A DNA stretch of 64,000 bases from Escherichia coli (lineage in GTDB: Bacteria > Pseudomonadota > Gammaproteobacteria > Enterobacterales > Enterobacteriaceae): assembly GCF_041886205.1 (NCBI RefSeq), contig NZ_CP169029.1, one strand, 5' to 3'. Within the stretch, counting starts at the first letter, position 1. Each line of letters opens with the position of its first letter. Below are positions 30,561 through 36,076 of the stretch, piece after piece. The translations under genes were made by a program, and so were the position numbers. The notes under the pieces were generated by a model. That model did no database searches. It worked only from the letters and a program-made list of their open reading frames with translations, and had not been told where the DNA came from.

Positions 30561-33500
30561 CTAAAACTCGAACTGATAGAGCAAATCCAGTGCCTGGTCT
30601 ACACCAGACACGGCTTCCAGATATAGCTTAGGCATCAGGCGATAACGTAACGTGAGTGTTGCTATAGAGTCAAATATACCCACGCCGTATTTCACTTGCA
30701 GACCTGGCAATACATAGCCGCTGACCACCACCTGGGAGGAGTCGCCTACTCCCTGGGTGTCGAGCGCTAAATTGCTTACGCCAAACGTCTCGCCGATTTT
30801 ACCCACAATCTGGCCACTTTGCGCAACCCCCAGACCAATCAGCATCGAGGTCATTGCCGCACTGTCGCTCTGATCGCTCTCCAGCCCTTGTCCACGTAGC
30901 AAATAAGACAATGCAGCTTGTTGCGACATCGCCGGGTCAGAGAAGATCTCCGCTTTCGGTTCGTCCGCCAGACCAGTGACGCGAACTCCGGCGATTACGT
31001 CGTCTTCTGTAGCATCCGGGTTACGAATAGCTTCAATATTAAGATACGGTTGATCCGGCGGACCAGAGAACAGTAACTCACCCTTACGCACAATCAGATC
31101 CTGACCATAGGCATGGAAGCGCCCTTCAGGGATGTTGATCTGCCCGTTCAGGCCCAGCCCTTGTTTGTCCTGTACGACGTTAAGATCGCCCGTCAGCCGC
31201 GCTTTCAGGCCAAAGGCGTCAATGCGCACATTGTTGCCAACGTGGACAATCAGGTTACTGTTAATCGGAATCGACGCCGTTTTCGGCTCTTCCGGTTGCA
31301 GGTTATCGTTAAGCATCACCACATCGCTGGAGACGCCTACTGCGCTTTCCGGCAGATCGTGCACCACGATGCGCGCCCACGGGACATCCACGCGACCATC
31401 GAGGGTAAACAGGTTTGGTGTAGCCTCGAATACAACATCTGGCGATACATCCATTCGTACCATCGGCGGCACGGTGATCCGCACTTTACTGCCTTTCGCC
31501 GTTACTCGTGCCCGCCAGTTTTCAATTTGGCTCCAGTCGGCATCACCGTTCAGGTAGATTTCACCCTGCTGGGTCCGTACTGTACCGGCAAGCGTCGAGC
31601 GCATACCGTTAAAGTTGACCGCAAGCTGGCTCGGCTGCATATCAAACGGCATAAAGTTGCCGTCGATATCCACACCCGTAACCTGAAGCTGACCAAACAA
31701 CTGCGGGCTTTGCACATCACCACCCAGACGCAAGTTGGCACTCACCATCCCCGCTGCTTTTTCCCCACGAGTAAAGATGGGGTTTATCATCGCAAGGTTG
31801 AAGTTACGGATATTGACGTTGCCACCAAGATTACGGCGGCCTTGCGGATCGGTCACCAGCACCTGTCCATCAAACTGGCCGTTATTGGTCAGGCGGATGG
31901 TCCAGCCCAATTCGGCACGGTTGTTACGCAATTCCGCCGTCAGATTCAGTGTCTGAAACGCCACGGGCAGCGCCGCATCGTTGACGGTTTGCGTTACCTG
32001 CACGTTACGCCCCGAAAGGGTGATACTGCCCTGCGGCAGCCCCTCTTTCGTGGTGTCCCAGGCAACATCCGCTTTACCCGTGAAGATACCGCTGGCCTGA
32101 GTGGTTTCTGGCATAAACGGTTTCAGCATGGCGAGGTCGAAGCGGTTGAGATTCACCACCGCACGCCCTTCGGCCCCCGCATCGATAGTTTGCGGCACGC
32201 ACAGTTCCGCATTCTCGGGTTAAGCCAGCAGTGTGGCCCGATGCTGATTTTTTGCTCCTTATTGCGGTAATCCAGCGCAATATCGCGGGTCAGCGACCAC
32301 GGGCCGACCGGCGTCTGGAAGCGGGTATTGCTAAGAGTTCCCTTCCAGCGTTCTTCTTTGCGATCAAAACTTCCTGCCAGATTAAGCTGCCCGGAGACAG
32401 GCTCGCCCTGAATCCGCAACTGTAGCTCGTGCTGCTTTTCGCTGCCTTTGGCATTCAGGGTGACGAGGTTGATATTGACATCCGGCTGCGAAATTTGCTC
32501 AACGCGTACGTCGAGTTTACCCGCAATCTGATCGGTGGATTTGATATCGCCTTCCACGCGAACCTGCGCCACGGAAAGTTCCTGCCAGCGCAGGCCGCGC
32601 GCGGTGATATCTGCCAGTAGTTGTGGCGCTTCCACCGTGCCGCGTACTTTCACCAGCCCTTTCGCTGTACCGCCAAGCCCCGGCAGCGCGTTATCCAGAC
32701 CCGGCGCGTTGATGGTGGCATCAAGATTGAGATCTTTTACCCCCAGCTCGCCTTTCACTTCGGCACTGTTTGGCCCCCAGTTCCAGATGCAGCCCTGGGA
32801 TCATCCACTGCATATAACTGTTGCCTTTCAGCGTGCCGTCAACGTTCACTTTGTTCTGTTTGACGTTACCGGTCAGCTTCAGTTCTGGCACCTCCATCTG
32901 CCAGGTGCCGCCGTACAGGCTACCGCGGGTTTTAATCAAGCCATTGAGTTTCGACGGCCACTCTGGGATCTCTTTGGCGGTGTTAATGCCGTTAAGCGTT
33001 AGCTCACCGCGCCAACTAATGGCCTGCTGCCAGTCGAGCAACGCCTTGAGTTCAGTTTTCCCTTCCAGCGCCGCGACGGTGAGTTTGTCGAGATTGACCT
33101 GCTGTTCATTACCTTTGGCATCAAGGGTAATGGTGGCTGGCGGGATCTCCAGTCCCTTCACTGCCGTACGCATAGAGAGCGTGTAATCGGTCATTTTGCC
33201 GGTAAGTTTCAGTTTCAGATCATCCGCCTGATACTGCTTCTCACCAGTGAACGGCCAGTAAATCTGTTTGCTGTTCACTTCCACGTTGAGCGGCAATCCG
33301 GCTTCCGCCAGTCGCGCCTGGGCGCGTAAATCCATATCCCACCGGACCGGAAAGATTAACGCCAATCTCCAGCTGTTCGCGCAGCGCGCCGCCCACTTTT
33401 AGCTTCACTTTTTCACCTTTCAACGGCTCCACGTTCAGTGTGCTGTTGAGGGTGATATCCACCGGCCAGTTGTCTGACAGCTGCGCCGTGCCGCTGGCGT

Positions 33501-34344
33501 TGACAATCCCTTGATTGGAATCGATATCCAGGGCGTCCAGTTTAGTATTGCCGTCAATGCTGCTCACTTTCAGCAGCATGGTGCGCACGGTGATGTCCGT
33601 GTCGCCCGTCACGCGTAACTGCTCGCCTTTAAACTCTTCAATGTTCAGGTTAAGCGGCAAATGCACGTCGGTCATTTCCGGCAATACCGGGCGAGAAAAG
33701 AGATCTTTCAGCGTTTCGCCGAGCGGCTTTTCATCCGGCTGCGGATTTTCAATCTTCGGTTCGACGACCTCTTCCTGCGCCACTTCCGCCACTTTCGGCA
33801 GAGCAATCAGCAGGCCTTTCAGCGACGTCGGTTTCAGGGTCAGGGTTTTCTCCTGCCAGTTCAGGCCGGAGGTGAAGTCCATCACCGATACCGTGGTGTC
33901 ATCAATCTTGATGTTGACGTTATCCAGCGCCACCCGTGTCAGGGTGATGGGATACGGCGTGGAGAGATCCAGCGGACCGCTATCTTCCTCTTCTTCAACC
34001 TGTTCAGAAGGAGGCATTTTTTTACTGTCGATGTTGACCTGAATGTCTTTCAGCGCCAGGTCATTAATACAAACGCTACTGTTCCACAGGCACTCAAGCC
34101 CGACCGCCAGATGCAGATTGCCCGCTTTTACCGCCACGCCTGGCTGCTCATAACGAACGTCAGACAAGGTGAGATCGCGCCAGCCGCCGGTGACCTTGCC
34201 AATATCCAGTCCTGGTACCCAGCGATCCGCCGCTTTAAATACCAGATGCAGGCCACTGGTGGTGCCCACCAGAAACGCCACCGATCCCAGCAACAGTAAG
34301 ATAACGATAACCACGCCGAGGCTGATTTTTTTCCATAAACTCAT
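30561..34344 (-). pseudogene. tamB: Translocation and assembly module subunit TamB (YtfN), split into four frames by at least three small indels
   Basis: Four overlapping minus-strand track ORFs (30561..32198, 32153..32758, 32721..33365, 33241..34344) together cover TamB from [18 protein letters not shown]... to the C-terminus; junctions near 32216, 32774-32778 and 33340. Confidence 0.88.
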
Positions 34345-36076
34345 AATTCTGGCCCCAGACCGATGTAAAACTGTAACCCGTGTTCGTCTTTATCCGCGAC
34401 CGGTACGGCAAAATCGAGTTTGATTGGGCCCGACCGGCGATTCCCAGCGCACGCCGACCCCGGTACCGGTTTTAAAGTCGCTGCGGCGAATATCGCTTAC
34501 CGCTTCGCCACTATCGACAAACACCGCGCCCCACCATTTTCCGGTCACGTTGTACTGGTACTCCAGCGATCCGGTTATCAACTTCGAGGCCCCTTTCAGG
34601 TCACCGTTGGCGTATTTCGGAGCGATAGATTTGTATTTGTAGCCACGAATACTGCGGTCGCCCCCGGCGAAGAAACGCAGATCCGGCGGTACTTTGTCGA
34701 AATCACCGGTTTCAATCCAGCCCAGCGTGCCGCGTGTAACAAAACGATGGCGATCGTACAGTGTGCGGATCCAGACGTTTTGTGCCTGGAAAACGGAGAA
34801 ATCGACATCTGAGCCCCAGGCCGTGTTGGAGTAGTCGATAGAGTAGCGTTGCGAGTCGCCCCAGGTTGGCATCAGGCCACCACGAGAACGCGTGCGGCTA
34901 ATCATCACCCCAGGATAAAACAGCATCGTGGTGTTGGTAATTTCACCCTGAGAGTAAAGTGGTCGAGACTCCAGCGCAGGTTAATGGCACGCTGCCAGCC
35001 GCTGGAGAGATCCCAGTAGCGAGAAGCCACCAGCGTAGTGGAGTCAGATTCGGTATCGTTCAGGTCAGTGCGCTTAAAACCGCCCTGCACCAAATAATAT
35101 TGTTCCAGTGGATTCTTCAGCAGTGGCATTTTATAGCTGAAGTCGAGGGTCTGTTCCGGCGCGGAAATACTGGTACTGGTGGTCAGACTGTGACCATAAG
35201 AGTTCATCCACGGCTTTTTCCACGTCGCTTTCACGCGCGGTCCCACGTCCGTAGAGTAACCGACCCCGGTTTCGATGGTGTTTTCTGTTCGCGGCGAAAC
35301 CACGCCCGTCAATGGTAATACTTTCGTTTCGCGCGCTTTATCAAATTGTGGAGCCACCACCACCGAGTTAAACCAGCCGGTAGCAGAAAGTCGGCGGTTC
35401 AGTTCCGCCAGATCTTTCGATTCGTACTCATCGCCCTCTTTAAACGGCACCAGATTTTGCAGGTATTCATCGCGGAGGATTTGTGATCCTTCAAAGGTCA
35501 CATGCCCAAAGCGGTAACGTTCGCCACTGTTATAATCAATATCCCAGAAGGCTTTATGCAGGCCGAGCGCAATGCCCAGCTGCGCTTTGGTAAATTCGCT
35601 ATCGAAATAACCTTTACGCAACGCAATGCTGGTTAAGGACTTTTTGAAATTTTCATAATCGCCCTGGTTCAGTACCGTACCAATAGCCGGGCGAGTATCG
35701 AGCAATTTCAAATAGTCTTTATCGGTCCGCGCGCCGCCGCGCAATACCACATCGGTGCCGCCAATTAACACCGGCACGCCTGGCGTGACTTTGGCGATCA
35801 ATACCTGCCGCCCTTTCTTTGGCGGTGGACGGAGATCAAATTCAATGGTCGGCTGGTAATAACCCAGCGCTTTCAGACCTTCGCGGATGGCATCATCGAC
35901 GCGTGCGCGAAAGCGACGGTCTGGCGTCACTTCATCACTTTCAATCGTAGAAAGCTGCGCGCGAACGTTCTTTTCCAGCTGTCCCGATAACCCCTCGACC
36001 TGCCTGTAGACGGACGTTCGCGGCGACGGCAGATCCGCTTAAGCAGAGTAAGCTTACACAGCATAACTGTCGGATA
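34341..36076 (-). pseudogene. tamA: Translocation and assembly module subunit TamA (YtfM), at least four small indels
   Basis: Fragments 34390..34926 and 34905..35930 plus an untracked N-terminal piece. Apparent lesions: +1 near 34424, 2-bp dup near 34951-34954, 4-bp dup cctg near 35998-36005, 2-bp dup just after the ATG near 36072-36075. The stop overlaps the tamB start. Confidence 0.85.

Follow-up and report, generated by a model that had tools for sequence, protein, structure and literature searches.

Evenly spaced small tandem duplications in tamA, tamB and neighbouring genes of a deposited Escherichia coli genome are probably an assembly artefact

The tamA-tamB locus

The window analysed here is a stretch of 64,000 nucleotides of the Escherichia coli chromosome (RefSeq assembly GCF_041886205.1, contig NZ_CP169029.1) that extends from rraB/argF at its left end to ulaG at its right end. 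It contains tamB and tamA, which encode the two subunits of TAM and lie on the minus strand, flanked by ytfP and msrA as in the annotated genomes of strains XJ5.2 and 6EVA. Neither gene has an intact reading frame as written. A first-pass annotation, made from the letters of the window and a list of its reading frames, had ascribed this to at least seven small indels and had judged such a density in two adjacent genes of one pathway very unusual for natural decay. The seven lesions belong to a much longer and evenly spaced series of small insertions, and their arrangement bears on how the sequence came to be written as it is. The window is matched by all 5,425 complete E. coli genomes searched. 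Base-by-base alignments were made to XJ5.2 (globally, over window positions 30000-37000), to the near-isogenic strain 6EVA (8232-64000) and, for the left 25 kb, to CH4784.

tamB occupies positions 30561-34344 and is written as four open reading frames (ORFs), 33241-34344, 32721-33365, 32153-32758 and 30561-32198, which correspond in the ORF list to fragments of 367, 214, 201 and 545 aa. tamA (34341-36084) is divided into ORFs at 35941-36084, 34905-35930 and 34390-34926, encoding 47, 341 and 178 aa, and ends in a short C-terminal remnant. Apart from this remnant, the four pieces of tamB and three visible pieces of tamA are those described in the first-pass annotation.

Pairwise alignment with XJ5.2 and 6EVA places seven lesions in the two genes; relative to XJ5.2, positions 30000-37000 contain no substitution and nine insertions, seven of them within tamAB. 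Three interrupt tamB: a duplicated TC at 32213-32214, an additional C at 32774 that converts CCCC to CCCCC, and another extra C at 33338. The four in tamA are a G at 34426, at the 3' end of the gene, GA at 34950-34951, an in-frame GGA at 35474-35476 and CCTG at 35999-36002.

The earlier prediction of seven or more indels is therefore correct in number, with exactly seven present, although only six of the seven that it located are real. Alignment recovers its cctg duplication near 35998-36005, its 2-bp duplication near 34951-34954 and its run changes at 32774-32778 and near 34424, and the shift near 33340 that it had left unresolved proves to be the one extra C. The lesion that it placed at about 32216 also exists, but as the 2-bp TC duplication rather than a change of one base, and where it allowed for changes of +1 or -1, only insertions are found. 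Its seventh lesion, a 2-bp duplication at 36072-36075, is native sequence: all references share the tata at this site, just past the GTG start codon at 36084. The GGA insertion at 35474, which keeps the frame, had been overlooked.

When the insertions are removed, the translation of tamB is identical to TamB WP_000060898.1 and that of tamA to the Omp85-family protein TamA WP_001269327.1. The identity of the genes is thus established by sequence and by the conserved tamA-tamB-ytfP arrangement beside msrA in XJ5.2 and 6EVA, and the seven insertions account for the absence of intact frames in this record. The locus resembles a genuine loss or pseudogenisation of tamAB in that both frames are interrupted. 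It differs in that the repaired genes are 100% identical to the intact TamA and TamB of other strains, and in that the interruptions are part of a lattice that takes no account of genes. The strain shows no evidence of TAM loss, and no new system is involved.

Twenty-four tandem duplications on a lattice

The comparison with 6EVA reveals 24 insertions, each 1-4 bp long and together amounting to 54 bp, between positions 28,999 and 43,719, and no deletions. The damage is therefore not that of two adjacent genes of one pathway, as first framed: besides the seven in tamAB, 17 further lesions affect eight other genes and three intergenic sites. The targets are ppa, chpB, tamB (three), tamA (four), msrA, paeA (two), ytfJ, a ytfI-like ORF (two), cysQ (two), cpdB (four) and intergenic sequence (three). 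All 24 repeat the adjoining bases exactly and in tandem, which extends to the whole window a check that the first-pass annotation had proposed for tamAB. About 17 of the 24 duplicated units, for example CCTG, ACCT, GGA, GGC and TAT, were present fewer than two times beforehand, so that pre-existing homopolymer or short-repeat tracts, as expected for slipped-strand events, are not the typical site. Eight insertions of 3 bp were counted in the analysis, whereas the positions given in this text comprise seven.

Among the other complete E. coli genomes searched, 5,425 in number, none has any of the 24 insertions. The best identities among these genomes are 99.7% and 99.6%, and the inserted bases alone explain the shortfall. 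Once the insertions are removed, only four differences from 6EVA remain in 15,771 bp, and nothing else in the stretch suggests decay. The rest of the window contains no comparable indel relative to the near-isogenic references; the only indels there are one insertion sequence (IS) element and two ordinary polymorphisms.

The spacing of the lesions is highly regular. Successive distances are 595, 599, 2020, 561, 564, 1088, 524, 524, 525, 527, 525, 526, 525, 1034, 509, 507, 513, 509, 509, 511, 510, 506 and 509 bp, such that 20 of the 23 gaps lie within 500-600 bp and the three larger ones (2020, 1088 and 1034 bp) span boundaries between segments. Random placement would leave none of the 23 gaps below 506 bp with a probability of ~1e-15, and would confine all 24 lesions to 14.7 kb of the compared 54.5 kb with a probability of ~1.5e-12. 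In insertion-free positions the lesions fall on four linear lattices, whose periods are 595.75, 561.0, 522.4 and 506.5 bp and whose residual standard deviation (sd) is 0.3-0.7 bp, and all 24 lattice points lie inside the placement range of their insertion. Other descriptions of the spacing were tried and rejected. It is not constant in homopolymer-compressed or base-count coordinates, and it forms flat plateaus, at odds with a period that drifts smoothly (a chirp) or with one period from which nodes are missing. In a missing-node model, moreover, the gaps of 1088 and 1034 bp each equal the sum of two neighbouring periods, and 2020 bp fits neither three nor four steps of either neighbour.

If each lattice is extended one period past its outermost lesion, the affected stretch resolves into five abutting segments that together cover 15.8 kb (28404-44228). 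Segment A (28404-30792) measures 2383 bp without insertions and contains four pieces of 595.75 bp (residual sd 0.35 bp). Segment B (31653-33901; 2244 bp) contains four pieces of 561.0 bp, segment C (33905-38626; 4702 bp) nine pieces of 522.4 bp (residual sd 0.30 bp), and segment D (38631-44228; 5571 bp) 11 pieces of 506.5 bp. The gap between A and B would be filled by segment A' (30792-31653), a single piece of 861 bp with no internal junction and no lesion. Although the lattices were fitted independently, neighbouring ends meet within ~5 bp (33891.7 and 33896.2; 38598.0 and 38603.2). In all five segments, the number of pieces (4, 1, 4, 9 and 11 in order along the window) equals the segment length divided by 500 and rounded down. 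Inspection of the segment boundaries for sequence features found nothing notable.

A duplication is present at each of the 24 internal junctions, with none at segment ends and none between nodes. The sizes of the duplications follow the position within the segment: from end to end they are 0, 1, 2, 2, 0 bp in A, 0, 2, 1, 1, 0 in B, 0, 1, 2, 3, 4, 3, 3, 2, 1, 0 in C, and 0, 3, 2, 4, 3, 3, 4, 3, 2, 1, 1, 0 in D. The profile is thus tent- or dome-shaped, and the size at one junction is correlated with that at the next (permutation P = 0.0017). The lattice ignores both gene boundaries and reading frame, and three of its nodes are intergenic, including one in a terminator region. Seven lesions are found in tamAB because the two genes fill 5.5 kb of a 15.8-kb stretch that bears one lesion every ~500-600 bp, whereas the short genes chpS, ytfP and ytfK are spared because they fall between nodes.

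Other genes of the affected stretch

To the left of tamB, a G is doubled at 28999 in ppa, CA is duplicated at 29594-29595 in chpB, and CG at 30193-30194 between chpS and ytfP. To the right of tamA, msrA (36290-36931) has gained AAA at 36526-36528, which is in frame and adds one lysine. GGC follows at 37051-37053 between msrA and paeA (ytfL), and paeA itself carries GT at 37577-37578 and C at 38102. The remaining lesions are TAT at 39136-39138, between ytfK and ytfJ; TG at 39645-39646 in ytfJ; TAAA at 40152-40155 and CCT at 40665-40667 in the ytfI-like ORF; CCA at 41174-41176 and ACCT at 41683-41686 in cysQ; and CGG at 42194-42196, AT at 42704-42705, A at 43210 and T at 43719 in cpdB.

After removal of the insertions, the products of ppa, chpB, tamB, tamA, msrA, paeA and ytfJ match the reference proteins exactly, and cysQ regains an uninterrupted frame whose product differs by one amino acid. 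Two genes have histories of their own. The ytfI-like ORF (39818-40783) is annotated as a frameshifted pseudogene already in 6EVA, and an IS1 element adjoins it in XJ5.2. In cpdB (41932-43882), one internal stop is separate from the four lattice insertions and is shared with 6EVA, where the NCBI annotation of the gene reads pseudogene ('internal stop'); this stop is probably a real nonsense mutation at the level of the lineage.

As written, the ppa product stops at residue 70 of 176. The gene is essential in E. coli K-12 (PMC4236582), so that an isolate with exactly this sequence would not be expected to be viable. The altered MsrA has 213 aa in place of the normal 212 and is identical to NCBI protein XGC72620.1 / WP_374028426.1, whose sole public record is from one E. 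coli contig of 4,855,826 bp. The presence of this variant at NCBI indicates that the lesions sit in a real deposited assembly. An exact look-up of nine fragments in the public protein collection returned only this in-frame variant. Frameshifted genes are normally annotated by NCBI as pseudogenes without protein records, which explains why the frameshifted fragments are missing.

The rest of the window

Over positions 8232-64000, 6EVA differs from the window by 50 substitutions, one 1.3-kb IS3-family insertion and exactly 24 indels. Thirty-eight of the 50 substitutions are concentrated in a 3.4-kb tract at 8235-11618, in the mgtA region, and the first 8.2 kb of the window show 95-97% identity to 6EVA. 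This divergence looks like ordinary recombination mosaicism, unconnected with the lattice. The large insertion, 1310 bp at 52984-54293, is missing from both 6EVA and XJ5.2. Its two overlapping ORFs (108 and 296 aa) have the usual orfA/orfB layout and fit the IS3-family transposase model NF033516. In the left 25 kb, comparison with CH4784 yields two ordinary polymorphic indels only. A one-base difference in a C run at position 2991 lies off the lattice, inside a gene for a 'DNA-binding protein' that is annotated as frameshifted in CH4784; it reflects either ordinary polymorphism of a homopolymer or a mistake in the CH4784 record.

Piecewise consensus as the source of the lesions

We consider the lesions to be computational scars of piecewise-consensus stitching in the deposited assembly, neither biological nor specific to TAM, with a probability of about 0.88. 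At the stage of assembly, gap filling or consensus, each stretch bounded by a pair of trusted anchors would have been processed separately. A stretch of at least 1 kb would be divided into as many equal pieces of at least 500 bp as its length allows, and each spanning read or sequence would be cut in proportion to its own length. One consensus would be built per piece, and the consensuses would be joined without overlap clipping. Because the spanning sequences would differ slightly in length, their cut points would disagree, by nothing at the anchors and most in the middle of the segment. If each piece consensus then ran to its outermost supported base, the bases around a junction would be written twice.

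Such joining would produce duplications only and never deletions, the duplicated units need not be repetitive, and the length profile would be the one observed. All 24 internal nodes coincide with the expected junctions of separately built consensus pieces. Stretches shorter than 1 kb would have no internal junction and would leave no trace, which would explain the clean remainder of the window even if the procedure was run genome-wide. When proportional cutting was simulated, the predicted sizes correlated with those of the 24 junctions (r = 0.77), with a sum of squared errors of 12.3, whereas a flat model gave 24.5. Agreement was best for 3-20 sequences with indel differences of 0.05-0.2%, and inputs as accurate as these agree with the absence of other errors in the stretch.

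Several points weigh against this explanation. Equal division of anchored segments is no documented behaviour of a named tool; common polishers such as Racon and Arrow reportedly use fixed 500-bp windows on a draft instead. A literature search for a periodic junction artefact or an equal-splitting algorithm found nothing specific. The explanation also gives no reason for anchors to have been sparse in just this stretch, or for such simple errors to have survived later polishing. The outer ends of segments A and D, and segment A' as a whole, are extrapolated one period past the outermost lesions. Finally, the argument from ppa concerns one window, and a second functional copy may exist elsewhere in the genome.

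Comparison with known tools and alternative explanations

The nearest competitor to equal division is an artefact of polishing in fixed windows, in which 500-base windows of the Racon or Arrow type, laid on a draft that was too short, would have expanded to 506-597 bp and left errors at their splices. All periods indeed exceed 500 bp, and the default window of Racon is said to be 500 bp, although the Racon paper does not state this. Racon is similar to the process proposed here in that pieces of ~500 bp receive separate consensuses and are spliced, with junctions as the weak points. It splices non-overlapping window consensuses, and overlapping, aligning and clipping the windows raises identity, as its authors report (Vaser et al. 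2017; PMC5411768). However, its windows have a fixed length on the backbone over the whole contig, whereas here anchored segments are divided equally into pieces of 506-596 bp, the lesions are limited to 15.8 kb, and their size depends on the place within the segment. In place of one constant window length there are four periods, each constant to <1 bp, with no lesion outside 28.4-44.2 kb. With random draft deletions at 1-19%, window lengths would scatter with an sd of several bp, compared with the ~0.3-0.7 bp observed within a plateau. Nor do fixed windows account for the discrete plateaus, for the lesion-free nodes exactly at plateau boundaries, for duplication lengths that fall to zero there, or for the remainder of the contig being free of junction errors. 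We therefore regard this origin as unlikely.

Frameshift-rich long-read assemblies likewise contain false pseudogenes caused by small indels, with adjacent ORF fragments of one gene. Indel errors in long reads strike at random positions, favour homopolymers, are frequently deletions and occur genome-wide. Here, in contrast, there are no deletions, the sites are mostly outside repeats, the lattice is strict and the remaining ~48 kb are free of errors. In hybrid assembly, Unicycler uses the consensus of long reads that span a gap to fill anchored stretches between trusted contigs when the short-read graph offers no path, a step its authors call more error-prone (PMC5481147). The anchoring is comparable to that proposed here, but the paper describes no cutting of bridges into equal pieces, and ordinary long-read errors would be expected, which are absent here; by this analogy, Unicycler bridges might offer a lead but not a match. 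NextDenovo was considered as a source, and its published description does not match.

A biological origin fares far worse. Inactivation of TAM and its neighbours by natural pseudogenisation, or by a mutator or mutagen that favours frameshifts, would be in keeping with small tandem duplications as a real class of spontaneous frameshift and with the genuine nonsense mutation that cpdB already has in this lineage. In laboratory culture E. coli does not need tamAB, msrA, cysQ or cpdB, which would also suit such a history. Yet positions independent of one another, as decay would leave them, are contradicted at P ~1e-15, and the spacing statistics effectively refute real mutation; the first-pass annotation was right that these hits are unlike natural decay. 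The spectrum is not mixed, with 24 insertions and no deletions, most events lie outside pre-existing repeats, substitutions do not accompany them (four differences in 15.8 kb from 6EVA), and the lesions are limited to one stretch and absent from the 5,425 genomes. The truncation of ppa further shows that they are not restricted to dispensable genes. Deliberate rebuilding of the 15.8-kb region from synthetic fragments of ~500-600 bp that left duplicated scars of 1-4 bp is very improbable. Fragments of even size within larger blocks and scars only at junctions do suggest a resemblance to hierarchical DNA assembly, but truncation of ppa would be lethal, no cloning chemistry predicts a scar length that changes gradually between 0 and 4 bp according to the place in the block, and the stretch is otherwise wild type, with no recoding changes, watermarks or vector sequence. 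We give equally little credence to a broader form of the idea, in which the duplications are physically in the DNA, as scars of synthetic or recombineered fragments or through a periodic mutational process, and the cell survives by a second ppa copy or a suppressor. It is just as hard to believe that the insertions were added artificially and exist in no public sequence. The deterministic spacing looks programmatic and the frameshifted fragments are not in the protein collection, but the 213-aa MsrA with its AAA insertion is a public NCBI protein.

Significance

The lesions have no biological importance. They matter as a question of data quality: in a deposited complete E. coli genome, ten genes along 15.8 kb, including an essential one, would appear broken or altered when they are not. 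The artefactual MsrA (WP_374028426.1), at least, would be a case of an assembly error that has spread into protein databases. The signature itself, equal pieces of at least 500 bp in anchored segments, duplications only and tent-shaped sizes, could serve in screening other assemblies and in tracing the software responsible.

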